IMG/VR virus record: IMGVR_UViG_2690316347_000010
Source of the DNA: a virus
Taxonomy: Duplodnaviria > Heunggongvirae > Uroviricota > Caudoviricetes
Length of the DNA stretch: 10,375 nt
Reading direction: 5' to 3' (one strand)
The position numbers were made by a program, and so were the translations under genes. Of the stretch, positions 1 through 10,375 are shown one piece after another (positions within the stretch are counted from its first letter, which is position 1; each line of letters begins with the position of its first letter). Under the pieces are notes generated by a model. The model was not told the origin of the DNA and made no database searches. It saw only the letters and a program-made list of their open reading frames with translations.

Positions 1-142
1 CACGTTTTAATCCAGGTCGGCCTGTCCTTGTTCCGCTTAATTTATCTTCAAATATTTGTTCATATCCTGCACAAACAAGAGCGTTTCGTTGCAGGTCTGT
101 ATTCTGGTCATTTGTTGATACCCTTACATAGCCAATCAGCAC
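1..142 (-). CDS. pin: Serine DNA invertase (Pin/Gin/Hin/Cin family), N-terminal 47 codons only; partial, runs off the left window edge
   Basis: Reverse complement of 1..142 is identical to 5776..5917 and encodes MLIGYVRVSTNDQNTDLQRNALVCAGYEQIFEDKLSGTRTGRPGL, which matches the N-terminus of e14 Pin and Mu Gin-type invertases as I recall them, including the catalytic-serine region (VRVSTNDQ). GTG start at 140..142 (minus) with a GGGAG Shine-Dalgarno 7 nt upstream. Whether this copy is intact cannot be seen from the window. Confidence 0.65.
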   Translation of the reverse strand, partial: MLIGYVRVSTNDQNTDLQRNALVCAGYEQIFEDKLSGTRTGRPGLKR

Positions 143-196
143 GCTGAATCTCCCGTCCAAAAGCACAAATCATGCCATGCAGGCCAGAAACCGCCA

Positions 197-222
197 TTAT
201 CTAAAACCTCGGTTTACAGGAA
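197..222 (-). other. 26-bp invertase crossover site (gix/pix-like), pixA, inverted orientation
   Basis: Sequence ttatctaaaacctcggtttacaggaa is the exact reverse complement of the site at 5696..5721. It has two imperfect 12-bp half-sites around a central tc/ga dinucleotide and closely matches the Mu gix / e14 pix consensus as I recall it. It lies between the pin 5' end and the start of the fibre cassette, the canonical position. Confidence 0.8.
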
Positions 223-267
223 ACGGTAAACAAGGCTGGTAACGCCGTTCAGCGTTCCGGCGATAAA

Positions 268-1110
268 ATGACCGGAGAACTGAAAATTGGCACGGTGAAT
301 GCGCTGCGAATTTTCAATGATACCTTCGGTCTAATTTTCCGTCGTTCAGAAGATTTTCTTCATTTCATTCCGACGGCTGAAGGACAAGGCGAAAACGGTA
401 ATATCGGCCCATTAAGGCCATTCGCTATAAATCTGAGAACAGGTGCTATATCTGTCAGCCACGGGGCCAAAATTAAAGGAGGTCTAGCTATTGGAGCTAC
501 TGATAACGCACTGGGTGAAAACTCCATTGTTCTGGGAGATAACGACACCGGATTTAGGCAAGATGGAGATGGTATTATTAGCTTCTATTCAAATGGTTCG
601 CGCATCGGACATATTGATGAGTTAGGATTACATCTTTATAAAGATATTGAATCTAATGGCAGCAATTTTAGATTAAAAAGTAATTACCGCCACCACATTA
701 CATTCGCCAACGAAGACGGAAGAATTCGTATGTTTTTGTGGAAAGATAACGGTGGTGATGGTGTTCATATTAATAACGGTTCAGATGGTGGTGGTGATTT
801 CATTTTTAAAACAGATGGGGGATTTGCGCTGGGAAGTGGTGCGCAAGTTGCGTCTAGTGGCGATATTTATGGTTCAGTGTGGGAAAACAACTGGTTAAGC
901 ACATGGCTGCATAATCATGTCGTTCGGGATATTCGTCTTGGCAGCATTGAATATAAAAACGTATGGCGCGACTACGGCTTTGGCGATGCGTCAGGTTATG
1001 TTTTAACAGCCGCAATTAACAGCAATGCGGATGATATTGTCGACACTGTTGCCAGAAGGCCAATTCAGAAATTGATTGGGGGAATATGGTACAACGTGGG
1101 GAGTGTTTAA
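268..1110 (+). CDS. Alternative (silent) tail-fibre C-terminal variable cassette, 280-aa ORF; frame is open from 205, just inside the crossover site
   Basis: Contains the phage tail-fibre repeat [20 protein letters not shown] (compare [20 protein letters not shown] in stf) and a glycine-rich C-terminal domain. No Shine-Dalgarno before ATG 268, and an in-frame TAA at 202..204 sits inside the outer half-site, as expected for a promoterless cassette expressed only after fusion to the stf constant region. Followed immediately by a tfa gene. Confidence 0.8.
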
Positions 1111-1111
1111 G

Positions 1112-1639
1112 ATGATGCACCTGAAAAATATTAAGGCCGGGAATCCGAAAACACCGGAACAATACCAGCTAACTAAAAAAGCGGGCGTGGTATGGCTCTT
1201 TTGCGAAGATGGCAAAAACTGGTATGAGGAACAAAAGAATTTTCAGCCAGACACCATAAAAATTGCTTACGATGAGAACAACATCATCGTTGCTGTCAGT
1301 AAAGACGTTTCAACTATTAATCCTGAAGGGCTAAGCATAGTTGAAGTTCCTGATATTACGGCAAATCGTCACGCAGACAATAACGGAAAATGGATGTTTC
1401 TGGATGGTAAAGTAGTAAAGAGGGAATATACAGAACAGGAACTGCAACAACAGGCCGAATCACAAAAGGCCGCATTGCTTTCCGAAGCTGAATCAGTCAT
1501 CCAGCCGCTGGAACGCGCTGTCAGGCTGAATATGGCGACGGACGAGGAACGCACACGACTGGAAGCATGGGAACGCTACAGTGTTCTGGTCAGCCGTGTG
1601 GATACGGCAAATCCTGAATGGCCACAAAAGCCTGAATAA
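1112..1639 (+). CDS. tfa: Tail fibre assembly chaperone Tfa (ORF track starts at 1076; the start is more likely ATG 1112 or 1115, giving MMHLKNI/MHLKNI)
   Basis: N-terminus [23 protein letters not shown] and overall sequence resemble lambda Tfa / Mu U family chaperones. GGGAG Shine-Dalgarno at 1098..1102. Start lies 1 nt after the cassette stop (TAA 1108..1110). Paralogous (about half identical by eye) to the convergent 177-aa ORF. Confidence 0.88.
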
Positions 1640-1672
1640 AAATTAAGGCCCGATAGCGGGCCTTCTCTCATT
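1631..1672. terminator. Bidirectional intrinsic terminator between the convergent tfa genes
   Basis: Perfect 8-bp stem aaggcccg (1645..1652), loop atag, cgggcctt (1657..1664). On the minus strand the stem is followed by ttaatttttatt; on the plus strand by a weaker ctctcattct run. It sits exactly between the stop codons of the two tfa genes (1637..1639 and 1668..1670). Confidence 0.6.
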
Positions 1673-2201
1673 CTGGTTGTTCGGGAAACGTTACTGGCAG
1701 GCTGGAGGTGTCTGTGGATTCAACCTTCTGCGCATAGAGCATCCACTCGGTTAATTTTTGTTTATTCTCATCGGAAATGATGCCCAGCTGTAGCTGAGAG
1801 TCCCACAGCTGGGTTTTATCCCTGACGAGCTGCAGCAGGCTCTGCTTTTCATTTTCCGCTTGTTGCCTTTGCTCTTCCTCGGTATAAGTTCGCTTTATCA
1901 CCGCACCATCTTTGAACATCCAGTTGCCCGAAATATCAGCCCGGCGATTTGCTGTAATATCAGGCAACTCAACGACACTTAAACCTTCTGGATTAATTGC
2001 TGATACATCCTTGTCTATAGCAATAATTATTCCCTCAACTGTGTAAGCCAGTTTTATTGTATCCTCCTGAAAGTTTTTTAATTCCTCATGCCAATTTTTT
2101 CCATCTTCGGACCATAACCAGATAACATCAAAATTCTTTGTTAGCTGGTATTGTTCAACGGTTTTTGGATTACCTGCGACAATGTTTTTTAAATGCTGCA
2201 T
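1668..2201 (-). CDS. tfa: Tail fibre assembly chaperone Tfa, second allele (177 aa), presumed partner of the stf-resident C-terminal domain
   Basis: [23 protein letters not shown]...; Tfa/Mu U-like, convergent with the 187-aa tfa. ATG at 2199..2201 lies 2 nt after the stop of the 48-aa ORF (translational coupling). Confidence 0.88.
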
Positions 2202-2203
2202 GA

Positions 2204-2350
2204 TTATACCTGCGATACGTTATACCATGTTCCGTTAATTAACTTTTGTATTGGTCTGAATACTGCCGGATCATCACCATCGACTTCACCGATAATACCA
2301 AGCCCCGTGATTACATGGCCTGATTTTTCATACATCACGCCTTTCTTCAT
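2204..2350 (-). CDS. 48-aa ORF in frame with stf, separated from it only by TAG + ACC; likely the detached ancestral C-terminal tail of the fibre
   Basis: [48 protein letters not shown]. Its C-terminus ([17 protein letters not shown]) parallels the C-terminus of the 280-aa cassette ([18 protein letters not shown]). Below the ORF-track size cutoff; found by manual translation. Confidence 0.45.
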
Positions 2351-2353
2351 GGT

Positions 2354-4282
2354 CTAAACAACTCGTGTGCCAAGTCTGACATCTCTCACATAGCGGGAAT
2401 CAAAGTTACCGTAATCCGAGGGATTAACACGTCCCGTAATATTTATGGTTTTATTACTTTGAATGCTTCCGGAGACAAAGCGCATAACATGGACGTTATT
2501 AGCATAAACATCCAGATTACCATCGCCTTTTTGTTTAAAGCCCGTGTCATTATCACCCAATACAATCGAATTACCGCCAAGAGCACTGGATGTTCCGATA
2601 CCCAGTGCACCATTCAGTTGACCACCAGATAACGGCAGTGCACCAACATCTCCTGCTGAAGGTTTTCTGGTGGTGTAAAATTCGGACCAGTCGGCTTCAA
2701 AACCATAACCATCACGGGCTGAACGATAAAAAATACCGCCATTTTTATAATTAATCCGAAACTGAGCTGCAGGACAACTTCCTTCTCCCATATAAAAATG
2801 AATAATTAACGTTGATGCACCACTAATAGTTGCGTTATAGGCTCCGCTACTCCAGTTCCATCCAACTGCTTTATCATTCGCAACGGTGCTTCCTGTTTTC
2901 CCTAAGGCAAACGCACCAACATGACTTGCTTTTAATGTGATATCGGAGGAACCATCAAAAGCCACATTGCTTATTTTCCTGGCAGTTTTTAATTTTGCAG
3001 CTGTAGAAGCATTGCCGGATAGTTCACCAGAAAGGCCACCGCTGAATGTTTGTCGATTAGTCCAGGTATTCGCTGTACTGAGTAACGGTATTTTCTCCCC
3101 GCTTGTGCCGAGTTCTCGTAAACCGAGGTATTCGATAACGGCAGCAACGGTCGATTTCGCAAGAATATCCCGCCCGACTTTTGTCAGGGTTGCCAGGCTG
3201 GCGACATCATTCCCCGTAAAATACGGAAACTTGCCTGCCGCAGTAGTAAGTCCGGCCAGCGCCGTCAGGGTGGCATCTTTCGGTTGCTTACCCGCAAGCG
3301 CGTTAGTCATGGTGGTCGCAAAATTCGGGTCGTTGCCCAGCGCCGCAGCCAGCTCGTTCAGCGTGTTCAGTGCATCAGGTGACGAATCTACAAGGGCGGC
3401 AATCGCAGCCATAACGAAAGCCGTGCTTGCGATTTGGGTATTATTCGTTCCCTGTCGCGCAGTTGGTGTTGTTGGCGTTCCGGTCAGTGCAGGACTATTT
3501 AAGGGCGCTTTCTTGTTCGTTTCACCCATTACCGCCTTAACCGCTTTTGGCGTTGCCGCCAGTGACTCGGAAGTGCTGTTGGTCGCACTGCTGAGCTGTA
3601 CTATCCCCTTTTTCGTCGTGCTCGCATCCTCCAGCGCCACGGCGGATGCAATATCCTCTGCCCGTTTTGCTGCTGTCTCGGCGCGCGTTGCCGCGGATTC
3701 AGCAGCAACTTTGCTCTGAGATGCAGCCGTCGCACTGCCTGCCGCCTCTGATGCTTTCGTTGTTGCTGTCGTGGCACTACCTTTCGCTGCTGACGCTTGT
3801 CTGGTCGCCTCATCTTTTGAAGCAGACGCAGATGATGCCGATGACGCCGCTGAACTGGCTGACGATGCGGCTGCTGCCTTAGAGGAAGCAGCATTGTCTG
3901 CTGAAGTCTTTGCATTTGTTTCAGAGGTTTTTGCTGCAGAAGCAGACCTCGCTGCTGCAGTGGCTTGCTCAGTGGCTTTGCCAGCCTTCGTTGTGGCTGT
4001 TGAAGCGGATGATGCGGCGCTTTCTGCCGATTTTCCGGCGGCGGTGGCACTGGCTGAGGCCTGCCCGGCACTTGTTGACGCGGCACTGGCAGATAATGCA
4101 GCCGCTGTTTTTGAACCTGCCGCAGCTGAGGCGCTCTGTCCCGCTGCTGTTTCAGAAGACTTAGCGTTCGTCTCGGACGTTTTTGCCGCCTTCGCGGAAT
4201 TTCCTGCCGCCGTTGCCGAGGAAGCTGCACTACTGGCACTTGATGATGCATTCGTTTCTGAATATCGGGCCTTAATTTTTAT
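2354..4282 (-). pseudogene. stf: 5'-truncated duplicate of stf (about residues 241–875); no start codon or N-terminal domain
   Basis: 2183..4262 matches 6801..8880 (offset 4618). The open frame runs upstream to an in-frame TGA at 4283..4285, with no ATG/GTG/TTG until GTG 3640, which is why the ORF track reports only 428 aa. The 5' junction lies 17 nt after the stop of the right-hand tfa copy. Confidence 0.65.
3113..3138 (+). other. gix/pix-like crossover site inside the truncated stf copy (pixB), at the constant/variable junction
   Basis: ttctcgtaaaccgaggtattcgataa matches pixC at 22 of 26 positions with the same central GA dinucleotide. Encodes ...VIEYLGLRE... in stf. Inverted relative to pixA. 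Confidence 0.7.
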
Positions 4283-4806
4283 TCAGGCTTTTGTGGCCAT
4301 TCAGGATTTGCCGTATCCACACGGCTGACCAGAACACTGTAGCGTTCCCATGCTTCCAGTCGTGTGCGTTCCTCGTCTGTTGCCATATTCAGCCTGACAG
4401 CGCGTTCCAGCGGCTGGATGACTGATTCAGCTTCGGAAAGCAATGCGGCCTTTTGTGATTCGGCCTGTTGTTGCAGTTCCTGTTCTGTATATTCCCTCTT
4501 TACTACTTTACCATCCAGAAACATCCATTTTCCGTTATTGTCTGCGTGACGATTTGCCGTAATATCAGGAACTTCAACTATGCTTAGCCCTTCAGGATTA
4601 ATAGTTGAAACGTCTTTACTGACAGCAACGATGATGTTGTTCTCATCGTAAGCAATTTTTATGGTGTCTGGCTGAAAATTCTTTTGTTCCTCATACCAGT
4701 TTTTGCCATCTTCGCAAAAGAGCCATACCACGCCCGCTTTTTTAGTTAGCTGGTATTGTTCCGGTGTTTTCGGATTCCCGGCCTTAATATTTTTCAGGTG
4801 CATCAT
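4279..4806 (-). CDS. tfa: Tail fibre assembly chaperone Tfa (identical copy of 1112..1639)
   Basis: Protein identical to the left-hand 187-aa ORF; part of the inverted repeat R1'. Confidence 0.85.
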
Positions 4807-4807
4807 C

Positions 4808-5650
4808 TTAAACACTCCCCACGTTGTACCATATTCCCCCAATCAATTTCTGAATTGGCCTTCTGGCAACAGTGTCGACAATATCATCCGCATTGCTGTT
4901 AATTGCGGCTGTTAAAACATAACCTGACGCATCGCCAAAGCCGTAGTCGCGCCATACGTTTTTATATTCAATGCTGCCAAGACGAATATCCCGAACGACA
5001 TGATTATGCAGCCATGTGCTTAACCAGTTGTTTTCCCACACTGAACCATAAATATCGCCACTAGACGCAACTTGCGCACCACTTCCCAGCGCAAATCCCC
5101 CATCTGTTTTAAAAATGAAATCACCACCACCATCTGAACCGTTATTAATATGAACACCATCACCACCGTTATCTTTCCACAAAAACATACGAATTCTTCC
5201 GTCTTCGTTGGCGAATGTAATGTGGTGGCGGTAATTACTTTTTAATCTAAAATTGCTGCCATTAGATTCAATATCTTTATAAAGATGTAATCCTAACTCA
5301 TCAATATGTCCGATGCGCGAACCATTTGAATAGAAGCTAATAATACCATCTCCATCTTGCCTAAATCCGGTGTCGTTATCTCCCAGAACAATGGAGTTTT
5401 CACCCAGTGCGTTATCAGTAGCTCCAATAGCTAGACCTCCTTTAATTTTGGCCCCGTGGCTGACAGATATAGCACCTGTTCTCAGATTTATAGCGAATGG
5501 CCTTAATGGGCCGATATTACCGTTTTCGCCTTGTCCTTCAGCCGTCGGAATGAAATGAAGAAAATCTTCTGAACGACGGAAAATTAGACCGAAGGTATCA
5601 TTGAAAATTCGCAGCGCATTCACCGTGCCAATTTTCAGTTCTCCGGTCAT
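4808..5650 (-). CDS. Alternative tail-fibre C-terminal variable cassette (identical copy of 268..1110); frame open up to the crossover site
   Basis: Protein identical to the left-hand 280-aa ORF; lies directly downstream (minus strand) of pixC. Confidence 0.8.
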
Positions 5651-5695
5651 TTTATCGCCGGAACGCTGAACGGCGTTACCAGCCTTGTTTACCGT

Positions 5696-5721
5696 TTCCT
5701 GTAAACCGAGGTTTTAGATAA
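5696..5721 (+). other. 26-bp invertase crossover site (gix/pix-like), pixC
   Basis: ttcctgtaaaccgaggttttagataa; sits between the pin remnant and the fibre cassette. Direct orientation relative to pixB and pixD, inverted relative to pixA. Confidence 0.8.
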
Positions 5722-5775
5722 TGGCGGTTTCTGGCCTGCATGGCATGATTTGTGCTTTTGGACGGGAGATTCAGC

Positions 5776-6102
5776 GTGCTGATTGGCTATGTAAGGGTAT
5801 CAACAAATGACCAGAATACAGACCTGCAACGAAACGCTCTTGTTTGTGCAGGATATGAACAAATATTTGAAGATAAATTAAGCGGAACAAGGACAGGCCG
5901 ACCTGGATTAAAACGTGCTTTAAAGCGCCTTCAAAAAGGTGACGCACTGGTTGTCTGAAAACTGGACTGACTGGGTCACTGTATGCGGCATCTTGTCGTG
6001 CTGGTGGTGGAAGCCTAGAAAAAGTATCGGGTGTTGCTGAACCGTGTTGATACATCAACTGCACCTGATATTGAGTGGCCTACGAACCCTGTCAGGGAGT
6101 AA
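5776..6102 (+). pseudogene. pin: Pin/Gin-family serine invertase, decayed: first 60 codons intact, then in-frame TGA, TGA, TAG and TAA; 3' part divergent and cut short by the methyltransferase gene
   Basis: Translation from GTG 5776 gives MLIGYVRVSTNDQ...LQKGDALVV*KLD*LGHCMRHLVVLVVEA*..., against a remembered Pin sequence ...[29 protein letters not shown].... Stops at 5956..5958, 5968..5970, 6016..6018 and 6100..6102. The ORF track's 5752 start is an upstream in-frame GTG; homology points to 5776. Confidence 0.7.
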
Positions 6103-6156
6103 TCATTGGGATTATGCCGCAGCACGTCTTAAGCAAGAACGTGCTGCGGTTGGATG

Positions 6157-6819
6157 CTATTTTTTCCCTGAAGCGGAAAACATTACTACAGTACCTTGAA
6201 CCTTGGTTTTAACATTCTCGAAATGCTCTGAGAGTATATGTGTTAAGCCTTCTTCGGAATCTTTTGTGTTTGAAAAGATGCCTTTCTGATTGTAAATGCG
6301 CATCAGTTTTTGACCGAAGCTATTGTGCACAACTCCATCGCCAAGAATTGTGGCTCCGTATAGAGTTCCATCGTCAGTTAAGGCCTGCGCCGCATTGCGT
6401 ATTACACAGCTTTTTGTAGATATATTTCCAGGCAGGCAGTGAAGAAGGTAAAACATGGAAATGGAATCAAATTGACCATGTAACGCCGCGGGATAAGGTT
6501 CAAAAACATCATGGCTAATTTTATGTTTAATTTTTGATTCCCCAGCCCTTGTAGATGCCGCGTTCAGGCTAGCTTCGTTCAAATCCATTAAAGATATCAG
6601 ACTACTCTCAGGTACGTGAGTAAGGTAAAACCCAGTTCCAACACCAATATCCAGATGGTTGTTACCTAAATGTTCCAGAAAGTGTGGAAGAAGGTGTTCC
6701 TTTGTAGGACATCCCCATGCAAGCCGATTTGATACTCCCAAAACCCACCAGTCATAAAGCTTTAGGGTAAGTGGTGTGTAAATTTTAGCCCCATCATCTG
6801 TGTTTATTAAATGCTGCAT
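6157..6819 (-). CDS. Putative class I SAM-dependent methyltransferase (220 aa) in the position normally held by tfa
   Basis: Glycine-rich motif-I-like segment LDIGVGTGF. Shares start codon, Shine-Dalgarno context and first codons (MQHL-N) with the 177-aa tfa, then diverges. ATG lies 2 nt after the stop of the 48-aa ORF. May be related to the DLP12 prophage YbcY methyltransferase-like gene that sits among tfa remnants in E. coli K-12; this is from memory and unverified. Confidence 0.6.
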   Translation of the reverse strand: MQHLINTDDGAKIYTPLTLKLYDWWVLGVSNRLAWGCPTKEHLLPHFLEHLGNNHLDIGVGTGFYLTHVPESSLISLMDLNEASLNAASTRAGESKIKHKISHDVFEPYPAALHGQFDSISMFYLLHCLPGNISTKSCVIRNAAQALTDDGTLYGATILGDGVVHNSFGQKLMRIYNQKGIFSNTKDSEEGLTHILSEHFENVKTKVQGTVVMFSASGKK

Positions 6820-6821
6820 GA

Positions 6822-6968
6822 TTATACCTGCGATACGTTATACCATGTTCCGTTAATTAACTTTTGTATTGGTCTGAATACTGCCGGATCATCACCATCG
6901 ACTTCACCGATAATACCAAGCCCCGTGATTACATGGCCTGATTTTTCATACATCACGCCTTTCTTCAT
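6822..6968 (-). CDS. 48-aa ORF (copy of 2204..2350), in frame with stf after a single TAG
   Basis: Identical to the copy at 2204..2350; separated from stf only by TAG (6972..6974) + ACC. Confidence 0.45.
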   Translation of the reverse strand: MKKGVMYEKSGHVITGLGIIGEVDGDDPAVFRPIQKLINGTWYNVSQV

Positions 6969-6971
6969 GGT

Positions 6972-9599
6972 CTAAACAACTCGTGTGCCAAGTCTGACAT
7001 CTCTCACATAGCGGGAATCAAAGTTACCGTAATCCGAGGGATTAACACGTCCCGTAATATTTATGGTTTTATTACTTTGAATGCTTCCGGAGACAAAGCG
7101 CATAACATGGACGTTATTAGCATAAACATCCAGATTACCATCGCCTTTTTGTTTAAAGCCCGTGTCATTATCACCCAATACAATCGAATTACCGCCAAGA
7201 GCACTGGATGTTCCGATACCCAGTGCACCATTCAGTTGACCACCAGATAACGGCAGTGCACCAACATCTCCTGCTGAAGGTTTTCTGGTGGTGTAAAATT
7301 CGGACCAGTCGGCTTCAAAACCATAACCATCACGGGCTGAACGATAAAAAATACCGCCATTTTTATAATTAATCCGAAACTGAGCTGCAGGACAACTTCC
7401 TTCTCCCATATAAAAATGAATAATTAACGTTGATGCACCACTAATAGTTGCGTTATAGGCTCCGCTACTCCAGTTCCATCCAACTGCTTTATCATTCGCA
7501 ACGGTGCTTCCTGTTTTCCCTAAGGCAAACGCACCAACATGACTTGCTTTTAATGTGATATCGGAGGAACCATCAAAAGCCACATTGCTTATTTTCCTGG
7601 CAGTTTTTAATTTTGCAGCTGTAGAAGCATTGCCGGATAGTTCACCAGAAAGGCCACCGCTGAATGTTTGTCGATTAGTCCAGGTATTCGCTGTACTGAG
7701 TAACGGTATTTTCTCCCCGCTTGTGCCGAGTTCTCGTAAACCGAGGTATTCGATAACGGCAGCAACGGTCGATTTCGCAAGAATATCCCGCCCGACTTTT
7801 GTCAGGGTTGCCAGGCTGGCGACATCATTCCCCGTAAAATACGGAAACTTGCCTGCCGCAGTAGTAAGTCCGGCCAGCGCCGTCAGGGTGGCATCTTTCG
7901 GTTGCTTACCCGCAAGCGCGTTAGTCATGGTGGTCGCAAAATTCGGGTCGTTGCCCAGCGCCGCAGCCAGCTCGTTCAGCGTGTTCAGTGCATCAGGTGA
8001 CGAATCTACAAGGGCGGCAATCGCAGCCATAACGAAAGCCGTGCTTGCGATTTGGGTATTATTCGTTCCCTGTCGCGCAGTTGGTGTTGTTGGCGTTCCG
8101 GTCAGTGCAGGACTATTTAAGGGCGCTTTCTTGTTCGTTTCACCCATTACCGCCTTAACCGCTTTTGGCGTTGCCGCCAGTGACTCGGAAGTGCTGTTGG
8201 TCGCACTGCTGAGCTGTACTATCCCCTTTTTCGTCGTGCTCGCATCCTCCAGCGCCACGGCGGATGCAATATCCTCTGCCCGTTTTGCTGCTGTCTCGGC
8301 GCGCGTTGCCGCGGATTCAGCAGCAACTTTGCTCTGAGATGCAGCCGTCGCACTGCCTGCCGCCTCTGATGCTTTCGTTGTTGCTGTCGTGGCACTACCT
8401 TTCGCTGCTGACGCTTGTCTGGTCGCCTCATCTTTTGAAGCAGACGCAGATGATGCCGATGACGCCGCTGAACTGGCTGACGATGCGGCTGCTGCCTTAG
8501 AGGAAGCAGCATTGTCTGCTGAAGTCTTTGCATTTGTTTCAGAGGTTTTTGCTGCAGAAGCAGACCTCGCTGCTGCAGTGGCTTGCTCAGTGGCTTTGCC
8601 AGCCTTCGTTGTGGCTGTTGAAGCGGATGATGCGGCGCTTTCTGCCGATTTTCCGGCGGCGGTGGCACTGGCTGAGGCCTGCCCGGCACTTGTTGACGCG
8701 GCACTGGCAGATAATGCAGCCGCTGTTTTTGAACCTGCCGCAGCTGAGGCGCTCTGTCCCGCTGCTGTTTCAGAAGACTTAGCGTTCGTCTCGGACGTTT
8801 TTGCCGCCTTCGCGGAATTTCCTGCCGCCGTTGCCGAGGAAGCTGCACTACTGGCACTTGATGATGCATTCGTTTCTGAAGATTTCGCTGCCTCTTTTGA
8901 GGCCGCCGCACCCCGTGCCGAGGTGGCAGCTTCTGACGCCTTCGTGGTCGCTGTGGATGCAGAAGTGGCTGCCGATTTTTGTGATGCTGCGGCATTCGTT
9001 TCTGACGTTTTCGCGGCACTGGCGCTGGTAGCTGCCGCGCTTTTTGATGACTCTGCAGCAGCACTTTTTGCTGCTTCACGGGCCTTTGTCGATGCCGTTC
9101 CTGCGCTGGAAGACGCTGACTGAGCCGACGACGCGGCCTGTCCGGCTGACGTGCTGGCGGCACGTGCTGAGGCTGCAGCATCGGTTGCATGAGTTGCCGC
9201 CTCGCTGGCTGATTTTTTCGCGGCTGCCGTATTCTGTGCAACCGCGGAGGCGTTACGTGACACCTCTTCCACCATCTGCTCAAAGCGGCGCAGTGCCTCC
9301 GGTCGGACATCATCCTCCGTCATGGCACCGAGAAAATCATTCAGCGTACCTGGTCTGGAACCTTCATAGACGGTAATGGTCCCGGCATGTGAAGGCGGAA
9401 AACCTTCAACCAGCAGGGTGACGCTGTACTGACCATGCTCAACATCCATGCTGTAACGTCCGGCTTCATCCGGATTTTCAGAGGCCACCGTGTTCACCAC
9501 CATCGTGCTGCTGGTTCGTCTGGCCTTCAGCACAATGGTGCAGTTCTGTACTGGTTTTCCTGTGCCATCTTTAAGCACGCCAGAAATTTTTACTGTCAT
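6972..9599 (-). CDS. stf: Side tail fibre protein Stf, full length (875 aa): conserved N-terminal domain, Ala/Ser-rich repetitive shaft, C-terminal receptor-binding domain
   Basis: N-terminus MTVKISGVLKDGTGKPVQNCTIVLKARR...GQYSVTLLVEGFPPSHAGTITVYE closely matches lambda/Rac Stf as I recall it. Long SETNA/Ala-Ser repeat region; C-terminal [14 protein letters not shown] fibre repeat. Lies downstream of lom as in lambda. Confidence 0.92.
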   Translation of the reverse strand: MTVKISGVLKDGTGKPVQNCTIVLKARRTSSTMVVNTVASENPDEAGRYSMDVEHGQYSVTLLVEGFPPSHAGTITVYEGSRPGTLNDFLGAMTEDDVRPEALRRFEQMVEEVSRNASAVAQNTAAAKKSASEAATHATDAAASARAASTSAGQAASSAQSASSSAGTASTKAREAAKSAAAESSKSAAATSASAAKTSETNAAASQKSAATSASTATTKASEAATSARGAAASKEAAKSSETNASSSASSAASSATAAGNSAKAAKTSETNAKSSETAAGQSASAAAGSKTAAALSASAASTSAGQASASATAAGKSAESAASSASTATTKAGKATEQATAAARSASAAKTSETNAKTSADNAASSKAAAASSASSAASSASSASASKDEATRQASAAKGSATTATTKASEAAGSATAASQSKVAAESAATRAETAAKRAEDIASAVALEDASTTKKGIVQLSSATNSTSESLAATPKAVKAVMGETNKKAPLNSPALTGTPTTPTARQGTNNTQIASTAFVMAAIAALVDSSPDALNTLNELAAALGNDPNFATTMTNALAGKQPKDATLTALAGLTTAAGKFPYFTGNDVASLATLTKVGRDILAKSTVAAVIEYLGLRELGTSGEKIPLLSTANTWTNRQTFSGGLSGELSGNASTAAKLKTARKISNVAFDGSSDITLKASHVGAFALGKTGSTVANDKAVGWNWSSGAYNATISGASTLIIHFYMGEGSCPAAQFRINYKNGGIFYRSARDGYGFEADWSEFYTTRKPSAGDVGALPLSGGQLNGALGIGTSSALGGNSIVLGDNDTGFKQKGDGNLDVYANNVHVMRFVSGSIQSNKTINITGRVNPSDYGNFDSRYVRDVRLGTRVV
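7731..7756 (+). other. gix/pix-like crossover site inside full-length stf (pixD)
   Basis: Identical to pixB (offset 4618); 22 of 26 match to pixC with the same central dinucleotide; encodes VIEYLGLRE. Confidence 0.7.
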
Positions 9600-9610
9600 A
9601 CTTTTCCACC

Positions 9611-9646
9611 AATAAAAAAAGCCCGCAGCAGTGACGCCACGGGCTT
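9611..9646 (-). terminator. Putative intrinsic terminator downstream of lom, just upstream of the stf start
   Basis: On the minus strand: 7-bp stem aagcccg/cgggctt with a 14-nt loop, followed by a run of T (A-run 9614..9620 on the plus strand). Confidence 0.5.
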
Positions 9647-9750
9647 CAGGACAGTGTAACTTTACGTTTCCTCAAACGCAGTTCACCCCATAAGGTGGAT
9701 GAACCTGCGTATCATAACAATATTTACAGAAGATAAATCGGCGTCTGTTG

Positions 9751-10350
9751 TCAGATACGGTATCCGATACCAACAATAAATGCATCCGTTCGCCAGTCAC
9801 CACTACCGGAACCTTCATAAGCAAGGTCAATGGTCACGGATTCGGTCGGGTTAAACTGCACGCCAGCCCCCCACGCCAGAGACGTGTTGCTGTGGCGACC
9901 GTCATCACTTCCGGTCAGCACATCGTGCGTTTTCCCCTTGTTGTCAGTTACGCGGAGATAATCCCCGGAGAAAGTCGACACACGGCTGTAAGCCACACCC
10001 ACCATCGCATACGCGCTGAACCATTCATTCACGCGTACAGACGGCCCCGCCATCACGCTGAACCAGCGGTTACGCACGGAATCTTCATGCCAGCGGGTAT
10101 CGCTGTAGTGCGTTTTTTGCTCATCCTCAGCATTGGCATAACTGAAGGACGTAATCAGCCCCAGCGCGTCCGTAAACTCATAACGGTATTTCACGTTAAT
10201 CCCGTTCAGATTATCGCTGCCGGGAGCGTTCGTACGGGCATGAAGATACCCCGCGCTCAGTGTGGACTGATGTTCAGACGCCCATGCAGGCGCACCGGAT
10301 ACGGACAGACAGATGGCTGCGGACAAAATGGCTGCACAAACTTTACGCAT
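9751..10350 (-). CDS. lom: Lom outer-membrane protein (Ail/PagC/OmpX family), with signal peptide
   Basis: MRKVCAAILSAAICLSVSGAPAWA signal peptide followed by SEHQSTLSAGYLHA...; near-identical by recall to phage lambda Lom. GAGAGG Shine-Dalgarno upstream of the ATG. Lies upstream of stf as in lambda. Confidence 0.93.
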   Translation of the reverse strand: MRKVCAAILSAAICLSVSGAPAWASEHQSTLSAGYLHARTNAPGSDNLNGINVKYRYEFTDALGLITSFSYANAEDEQKTHYSDTRWHEDSVRNRWFSVMAGPSVRVNEWFSAYAMVGVAYSRVSTFSGDYLRVTDNKGKTHDVLTGSDDGRHSNTSLAWGAGVQFNPTESVTIDLAYEGSGSGDWRTDAFIVGIGYRI

Positions 10351-10375
10351 AATTACCTCTCGCTTTTCTGCAATA

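Follow-up and report, generated by a model that had tools for sequence, protein, structure and literature searches.

Kilobase-scale repeats in a prophage tail-fiber scaffold are very probably overlapping pieces of one single-copy locus

The kilobase-scale repeats described here are almost certainly an assembly artifact, in which overlapping pieces of one single-copy locus were chained over two unsequenced gaps and no duplication exists in the genome. The window, by which we mean the whole stretch of 10,375 bp that was analyzed, was compared with public records and proved to be the reverse complement of an entire contig from a draft assembly of the Shigella sonnei lineage, CXDU01000179.1 (GCA_001248965.1); an exact-protein look-up with a 428-aa fiber fragment had led to this contig. 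The two differ only at positions 4262 and 6806, where the record has N and the window has A, and each N falls precisely on one of the repeat junctions. Rather than contiguous sequence, the window is thus a scaffold in which three pieces follow one another (1-4261, 4263-6805, and 6807-10375). A first-pass annotation had offered two readings: that the copies arose very recently by duplication or gene conversion, or that they were misjoined during assembly. The evidence strongly favors the misjoin, since both junctions are single-N gaps and the pieces collapse to the single-copy locus of complete genomes. The same observations speak against duplication or gene conversion.

Exact self-comparison of the window confirmed the coordinates and lengths that had been given for a direct pair of about 2.08 kb and an inverted pair of about 1.65 kb, at an identity far above chance. 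The direct pair measures 2080 bp at an offset of 4618, and the mismatch noted at first pass (2188 versus 6806) is indeed its only difference. However, position 6806 is N in the record, so that this is no substitution, and the inverted pair of 1655 bp contains two mismatches of its own, at 1537 and 1540 (G,G) versus 4381 and 4378. The inverted repeat reaches base 1 of the window, so that where it ends on the outside is dictated by the contig boundary, not the sequence. At junction 1 (4262) the flanks are without homology and the right-hand piece starts inside a terminator hairpin, which is thereby split in its loop; junction 2 (6806) splits the methyltransferase gene 20 nt past its start. Homology between the flanks at the two junctions amounts to 0-5 bp at most. 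The A shown at 6806 fits neither parental sequence, as tfa177 has T and the methyltransferase gene has G. Continuous sequence over both novel junctions, as expected of a genuine duplication, was not found; both are N. The features of the window are collected in Table 1.

Table 1. Features of the 10,375-bp window, with scaffold pieces, gaps, repeats, and genes
Feature	Position	Strand	Description
Scaffold piece a	1-4261		pin' (partial), crossover site, Sv', tfa', tfa177, Sv arm, second crossover site, stf constant part back to ~codon 240; right bound is the N at 4262
Scaffold gap, junction 1	4262		N in CXDU01000179.1, A in window; separates copy A of the direct repeat from arm 2 of the inverted repeat
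Scaffold piece b	4263-6805		Redundant inverted copy of tfa'-Sv'-crossover site-pin', followed by 888 unique bp (remaining pin' remnant, methyltransferase)
Scaffold gap, junction 2	6806		N in CXDU01000179.1, A in window
Scaffold piece c	6807-10375		lom, full stf gene, 48-aa ORF, first 19 nt of tfa177
Direct repeat, copy A	2183-4262		Truly shared part 2189-4261
Direct repeat, copy B	6801-8880		Native context, contiguous with stf N terminus and lom
Inverted repeat, arm 1	1-1655		Native context beside tfa177; G at both 1537 and 1540
Inverted repeat, arm 2	4263-5917		A,A alleles, as in all complete genomes
Partner crossover site	193-222		Inverted orientation, upstream of Sv'; redundant copy 5696-5725
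Sv', alternative tail-fiber C-terminal arm	268-1110	+	280 aa; PF20744; redundant copy 4808-5650 (-)
tfa', tail fiber assembly protein for Sv'	1112-1639	+	175 aa; PF02413, E = 8e-37; redundant copy 4279-4806 (-)
Hairpin terminator	1645-1664		Between convergent tfa' and tfa177; piece b ends within loop
tfa177, tail fiber assembly protein for Sv arm	1668-2201	-	PF02413, E = 5e-34
Redundant stf copy, codons ~240 to 875	2354-4261	-	Own start first at GTG 3640
pin', serine-invertase pseudogene	5752-5958	+	68 codons then TGA; partial redundant copy 1-166 (-)
Class I SAM-dependent methyltransferase	6157-6805	-	Interrupted by scaffold gap 20 nt past native start
stf, side tail fiber gene	6972-9599	-	875 aa; PF08400, E = 3e-69
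Crossover site inside stf	7731-7760		Codes AAVIEYLGLRE; redundant copy 3113-3142; from self-comparison and the recombinant joint at the site in L024
lom (Ail/Lom outer membrane protein)	9751-10350	-	PF06316, E = 2e-125

The stf gene stops at an amber codon, and its equivalent in E. coli NCTC86 continues for ~50 residues further; 72 blocks of the collection contain the exact 875-aa protein. The tfa paralogs of the window had been described as substantially different from each other. This is true of the two genuine tfa genes, whose products are 55% identical, but it does not extend to the ORF at 6157-6819 (220 aa). This ORF was rejected as a tfa paralog, as it is the methyltransferase gene fused over the N with the opening codons of tfa. 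Its exact protein sequence gave no match in a look-up, even though the source record includes a gene call of this kind.

For a collapse test, the overlaps of the three pieces were merged, giving 6645 bp, and the merge was aligned to seven related records (L031, L032, L002, L004, L006, L010, and L011), four of which are multi-megabase. It aligned end to end with every one of them at 99.93-99.97% identity (2-3 mismatches and 0-2 gaps) and left no remainder. The locus was present once in each, including S. sonnei ATCC 29930 (L031, CP026802.1; PMC9430107). Piece a taken separately is collinear with complete genomes at 99.9% identity, and piece b is 100% identical to L010 and 99.96% identical to several complete genomes. 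In the related complete genomes the locus is single-copy, and its order in the direction of the tail-fiber gene is lom, stf, the 48-aa ORF, tfa177, the oppositely oriented tfa' and Sv', a crossover site, pin', and the methyltransferase gene. When 5,426 complete E. coli genomes were searched, using junction probes as well as the entire window, no place covering either junction was located. The arrangement of the window was absent from every record of these genomes and of the phage collection, where only the canonical single-copy layout was seen, at 96-97% identity (NCTC86, ST131). Exact k-mer searches, run on genome_contigs for junction 1 and on metagenome_contigs for junction 2, gave 0 matches each.

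We considered whether the scaffold might nevertheless record a real and very recent rearrangement in the isolate. In that case the start of tfa177 would be followed by an insertion made up of an inverted tfa'-Sv'-pin'-methyltransferase copy and of the distal 2.08 kb of stf for a second time. The template could, for instance, have been switched twice during replication, once at the hairpin that terminates tfa' and tfa177; the scaffold order would be correct and the Ns would represent tiny real gaps. A template-switch duplication that includes an inverted insert would be expected to give this topology. The near identity of the copies also fits, as do the junctions, with 0-5 bp of microhomology and one of them in a hairpin loop. 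However, both junctions are unsequenced Ns, the pieces collapse onto the single-copy locus of complete genomes with nothing left over, and neither junction was seen in another record of the sets searched (the 5,426 E. coli genomes, with junction 1 also sought in genome_contigs and junction 2 in metagenome_contigs). Moreover, the contig end in the methyltransferase gene (window position 6805) recurs in five independent draft assemblies, joined to a different partner each time, as expected of a boundary in the assembly graph and not of a biological breakpoint. Once the Ns had been found and the 6805 end had been seen to recur with different partners, template switching was dropped as a real mechanism. 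We judge a real rearrangement to be very unlikely, and there is correspondingly little chance that the scaffold order is right and that a duplication with an inverted insert arose days to years ago. Were it true, the isolate would offer a caught-in-the-act case of tail-fiber cassette multiplication.

Twelve related draft assemblies hold the same locus in inflated scaffolds, with N gaps, nearly all of them single, at other coordinates. In sister drafts, a P2-like prophage also contains a nearly identical cassette, which measures at least ~1.8 kb (2.2 kb at most, where gap extension has lengthened the scaffold) and is 100% identical to window positions 1444-3653. This prophage has a 328-aa arm and an intact 195-aa invertase, which was seen only there. 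A look-up of tfa177 among complete genomes returned the lambdoid locus alone, the second cassette being documented from draft scaffolds only. The G,G at 1537 and 1540, the sole internal differences between the inverted arms, are the alleles of this paralogous P2-like copy, a pattern typical of a collapsed or mixed repeat. It is only from these two SNP alleles that a P2-like prophage is predicted in the source isolate as well. If it is present, the part of the direct repeat that the two prophages share would show ~2x depth despite the wrong scaffold, and a depth check would be misleading.

The P2-like cassette raises the question of whether both copies of the direct repeat are real but lie in separate places, one in the lambdoid and one in a P2-like prophage, the two loci having been misjoined. 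The full identity of the sister-draft cassette to the window and the P2-like alleles carried by piece a are consistent with such an origin; the ends of piece a are not. The left end bears the lambdoid-specific 280-aa Sv' and truncated pin', where the P2-like prophage has its 328-aa arm and an intact invertase, and positions 3262-4261 are identical to the lom-contiguous copy of stf, whereas the P2-like fiber gene is only 93.5% identical over 3261-3601 (L014). As piece a is lambdoid-specific at both ends, copy A is not the P2-like locus, and its assignment to a P2-like prophage cassette was rejected. Two separate loci are thus an extremely unlikely source of the repeat. Although the two SNPs and the confusion can be traced to the P2-like prophage, the second copy cannot.

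The real locus is the tail-fiber locus of a defective lambdoid prophage with an invertible host-range segment of a known type (Mu G/P1 C/e14 P). Two inverted crossover sites flank alternative arms with one tfa gene each, Sv/tfa177 and Sv'/tfa' being convergent, and the sites at 193-222 and 3113-3142 are 83% identical over 30 nt with the common core AAACCGAGGT. Both orientations occur in related complete genomes, L031 encoding an 875-aa fiber and L024 a 918-aa fiber; in the inverted isomer L024, Sv' supplies the C terminus of the 918-aa stf product through an in-frame fusion of AAVIEYLGL to QET. An intact adjacent serine invertase, with catalytic domain and HTH, was not found, as pin' runs for 68 codons and then stops. 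In a profile search, the PF00239 match of pin' covered the N-terminal half only and HTH_7 was absent, and RefSeq labels the equivalent in E. coli "recombinase, incomplete." With a pseudogene of 68 codons as its own invertase, the locus can be inverted only by an enzyme provided in trans. The pseudogene keeps the 5' 204 nt of the gene, and a candidate Fis-dependent enhancer could be located there.

The first-pass reading of misjoined inversion isomers or repeats is right about the misjoin but not about isomers. The concatenation of both orientations of one segment, assembled in succession, is scarcely credible even though the segment is found in either orientation among complete genomes of the lineage and several sister scaffolds contain recombinant crossover joints, since all four crossover-site copies in the window are parental (stf-site-Sv twice and pin'-site-Sv' twice), no recombinant joint (stf-site-Sv' or pin'-site-Sv) was found in the window, and the repeat boundaries at 4262 and 6806 lie away from the crossover sites. 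With all four copies parental, mixed orientation is a likely cause of wrong links, yet no isomer is present in the sequence.

The scaffolding artifact that we favor consists of three short-read pieces chained via two one-base gaps. The "direct repeat" is then the ~2.08-kb overlap of pieces a and c, and the "inverted repeat" the 1.65-kb overlap of pieces b and a, with b set in the wrong orientation; redundant overlapping pieces in the wrong order and orientation make up the artifact. Two causes seem probable. An invertible tail-fiber segment would be hard for short reads, and cultures may well be mixtures of orientations, given that both are found among related complete genomes. A near-identical P2-like cassette, as in the sister strains, would likewise confuse short reads. 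Conflicting read-pair links may then have led a greedy scaffolder to join contigs wrongly, after which a gap filler would have extended the contig ends base by base into a gap that could not be closed, resynthesizing neighboring sequence and leaving one N. GapFiller leaves a single N where a gap fails to close after the estimated gap is exhausted. The pipeline of GCA_001248965.1 was probably Velvet, SSPACE, and GapFiller. SSPACE and GapFiller are greedy tools that are capable of false joins and inserted Ns (PMC5320598); in GapFiller, both contig edges grow by one nucleotide per step, and a gap is closed only if the extensions overlap (PMC3446322). As a counterpoint to an artifact, the scaffolder had read pairs linking the pieces in the given order, and hence some signal of physical linkage.

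A duplication that is absent from the genome has no biological significance. The display of the N gaps as A hid the clue that would settle the question at sight, and sequence windows should retain or flag Ns. Many public Shigella sonnei-lineage drafts hold a variously inflated version of the locus, which will mislead copy-number, pangenome, and tail-fiber diversity analyses that draw on them. Other structural readings of the window need redoing on the 6645-bp single-copy locus, including its extra crossover sites, its truncated second fiber gene, and the methyltransferase ORF that can be mistaken for a third tfa.

The scaffold resembles drafts made with SSPACE and GapFiller (PMC5320598, PMC3446322) in its N-joined contigs, whose ends were apparently extended into a never-closing gap with one N left, and in the inflation of one locus differently in each isolate of a series, a likeness that assumes the probable pipeline for GCA_001248965.1 and the single-N convention of GapFiller. 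With recent segmental duplication or gene conversion of phage tail-fiber cassettes it shares kilobase tracts of near-100% identity, but the second copies here can be reached only by crossing an unsequenced gap. Two prophages of the sister drafts, one lambdoid and one P2-like, do share a genuine cassette in nearly identical form, outside CXDU01000179.1.

The underlying locus resembles the systems of the Din family (Gin/Cin/Pin/Hin; the Mu G segment, P1 C segment, e14 P segment, and p15B Min) in that a constant fiber part is joined at a ~26-bp crossover site to either of two arms. Its crossover site, TTCCTGTAAACCGAGGTTTTAGATAA, is one base off Mu gix. As in that family, each arm has its own tfa, the arms are oppositely oriented, a serine invertase gene adjoins them, and both orientations are observed. 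The locus differs from these systems in that the invertase here is a 68-codon pseudogene, and also in the amber stop in one of its arms. In contrast to Mu, P1, and P2, the host prophage is lambdoid (J-lom-stf).

Self-alignment of the window, as proposed in the first-pass annotation, recovered both of the near-identical kilobase repeats described there. The direct repeat (2183-4262 and 6801-8880; copies A and B) spans 2080 bp at an offset of 4618, with one mismatch at 2188/6806, and the inverted repeat (1-1655 and 4263-5917) has two mismatches, at 1537 and 1540. The single mismatch originally reported therefore holds for the direct pair but not for the inverted pair. The two tail fibre assembly genes do differ substantially, as had been noted, being 55% identical. 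Since the inverted repeat reaches base 1, its outer limit is simply where the sequence stops, and since its second arm begins at 4263, immediately after the last base of copy A, five blocks tile the whole window.

Coordinates of blocks, scaffold pieces, genes and crossover sites in the window
Feature	Coordinates	Strand	Annotation
Block X	1-1655
Block U1	1656-2182
Block D	2183-4262
Block rcX + 883-bp extension	4263-6800
Block D + remainder	6801-10375
Piece a	1-4261
Piece b	4263-6805
Piece c	6807-10375
lom	9751-10350	-	PF06316
stf	6972-9599	-	lambdoid side tail fibre, 875 aa; PF08400
48-aa ORF	6822-6968 (copy 2204-2350)	-	in-frame fibre remainder beyond amber codon
tfa177	1668-2201	-	PF02413
tfa'	1112-1639	+	PF02413
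Sv'	268-1110	+	alternative fibre arm; PF20744
pin'	5752-5958; partial copy 1-166 (-)		serine-invertase remnant; 68 codons then TGA; N-terminal half of PF00239 only
Methyltransferase ORF	6157-6819		class I SAM-dependent
30-nt site in stf	7731-7760; copy 3113-3142		core AAACCGAGGT
30-nt site upstream of Sv'	193-222; copy 5696-5725	inverted	core AAACCGAGGT

An exact look-up of a 428-aa fibre fragment led to CXDU01000179.1 (GCA_001248965.1), a contig of exactly 10,375 bp. The window is the reverse complement of this contig except at 4262 and 6806, where it has an A and the source record has an N. The two Ns fall exactly on the junctions where the repeats start and stop, indicating that the window is a scaffold of three pieces. 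The mismatch seen at 6806 in the first-pass annotation is one of these positions; the N at 4262 was overlooked because the substituted A chances to match the other repeat copy. The junction flanks share 0 to 5 bp of homology, and piece b has one end in the loop of the tfa'/tfa177 terminator hairpin (1645-1664) and the other 20 nt within the methyltransferase gene. Replacement of N by A before scanning conceals scaffold gaps and yields false mismatches and false ORF fusions.

Merging the pieces by overlap, as rc(5918-6805) + 1-4261 + 8880-10375, gave a 6645-bp sequence that matched seven related records (four of them multi-megabase) end to end at 99.93-99.97%, with 2-3 mismatches and 0-2 gaps. 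The single-copy locus accounts for everything in the window, with no remainder. No place in 5,426 complete Escherichia coli genomes reached at least 80% coverage of the window; the best records in that search (NCTC86, 97%) carry a 5.8-kb single-copy version adjoining trpA, in which lom, stf and tfa are followed by tfa' and Sv' on the other strand and then by a truncated recombinase and the methyltransferase. Matches to junction-spanning probes in these genomes end exactly at 4265 and 6805, and k-mers across junctions 1 (4262) and 2 (6806) were absent from GTDB species genomes and JGI metagenome contigs, respectively. Exact look-up of the 875-aa fibre found multi-megabase records CP044151.1, CP179990.1 and UGZF01000005.1, all with the single-copy layout, and tfa177 added CP026802.1, which is S. 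sonnei ATCC 29930 (PMC9430107), identifying the lineage as Shigella sonnei. The repeats are an assembly artefact, not a real genomic feature: with Ns at both junctions and pieces that collapse to a locus matching single-copy records, the suggestion of a recent duplication fails and its alternative, mis-joining during assembly, is correct.

Twelve further drafts of the lineage (accessions FT.., FU.. and CX..) hold inflated scaffolds of the locus, with nearly all gaps a single N at coordinates different from those of the window. Five independent scaffolds (L005, L007, L016, L018 and the source record, L021) share the contig end at 6805, each with a different partner, and three share the end at 6372. 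Recurring ends with changing partners are the pattern that assembly-graph boundaries followed by scaffolding produce and are not expected of biological breakpoints. The topology would also suit a genuine duplication carrying an inverted insert and generated by template switching, but this is highly improbable: both unsequenced gaps would have to conceal true novel joints, and the recurrent end at 6805 would be left unexplained.

Two sister drafts, L003 (15617-19838) and L014 (4015-10654), contain a P2-like prophage with baseplate J/I, GpU, tape measure and an intact 195-aa invertase (Resolvase + HTH_7). Its cassette in L003 is 100% identical to window 1444-3653, although an N interrupts that scaffold at 3653 and gap extension may have lengthened it; the fibre gene in L014 is only 93.5% identical over 3261-3601, which suggests that near-identity truly ends near 3262. 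The lambdoid and P2-like myovirus-type prophages thus appear, from draft scaffolds only, to share a near-identical cassette of ~1.8-2.2 kb. Copy A cannot be the cassette of the P2-like prophage itself, because both ends of piece a are lambdoid-specific; the divergent fibre gene also contradicts this reading. At 1537/1540, piece a has G,G, the P2-like alleles (as in L003 and L007), and the counterparts in piece b are A,A, as in every complete genome compared; the G,G may reflect either a consensus mixed from two paralogous copies or gene conversion over a short tract. Were the P2-like cassette also present in this isolate, it would confound the read-depth comparison suggested earlier. Concatenated inversion isomers are excluded for the window, all four crossover-site copies being in parental context.

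Mis-assembly may have arisen because read-pair links would conflict where an invertible segment, possibly in mixed orientations, is combined with a two-copy cassette. A published Sanger-type pipeline runs Velvet, SSPACE and 120 rounds of GapFiller, and its own authors call it greedy and liable to make false joins, with Ns put in where contigs are joined (PMC5320598). GapFiller lengthens the contig edges on both sides of a gap by single nucleotides, and the gap is closed only when the two extensions overlap (PMC3446322). At a false join they would never overlap, and each edge would grow by sequence already elsewhere in the scaffold. We regard this pipeline as a candidate maker of CXDU01000179.1.

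The stf stop is an amber TAG at 6972-6974 (copy 2354-2356), where E. coli NCTC86 has CAG. Because this codon ends stf and the rest of the fibre tip lies in the 48-aa ORF, the lineage's Sv arm is apparently a pseudogene, unless the stop is suppressed. The fibre shaft (8376-9017; copy 3758-4273) contains degenerate ~33-nt periodic units (64-82% identity, spacings of 84-150 nt) coding for Ala/Ser/Thr-rich sequence (…SETNAKSS…, …SASAAKTSETNA…), a composition that creates long spurious opposite-strand ORFs, such as a gene-caller 244-aa ORF at 8389-9123. The ORF at 6157-6819 was ruled out as a third tfa; it is a 220-aa chimera (MQHLIN…) of the first codons of tfa177, the N and the methyltransferase (native 222 aa), a cargo gene that neighbours the invertible segment in trp-locus prophages of E. 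coli and Shigella. The pin' frame reads …GDALVV and then TGA in place of the family's W, with degenerate sequence beyond. In complete or near-complete S. sonnei-lineage records (L013, L023 and L025-L030), IS1 and HTH_Tnp_1/rve element insertions truncate or delete stf; such repeated hits indicate ongoing prophage decay.

The 30-nt sites differ from the Mu gix site by no more than one base. In CP032523.1 the segment lies in the opposite orientation, and a 918-aa fibre fuses the constant part in frame to Sv' between AAVIEYLGL and QET; recombinant joints are also present in several sister scaffolds. Both orientations thus occur among the lineage's complete genomes (CP032523.1 versus CP026802.1) although pin' is a 68-codon remnant, and an invertase acting in trans is presumably needed for inversion. 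The layout is that of a Gin/Cin/Pin-type invertible host-range segment, and the real content of the window belongs to an already known type: a decayed lambdoid prophage with an invertible tail-fibre segment, whose invertase is dead and one of whose fibre arms carries an amber stop.
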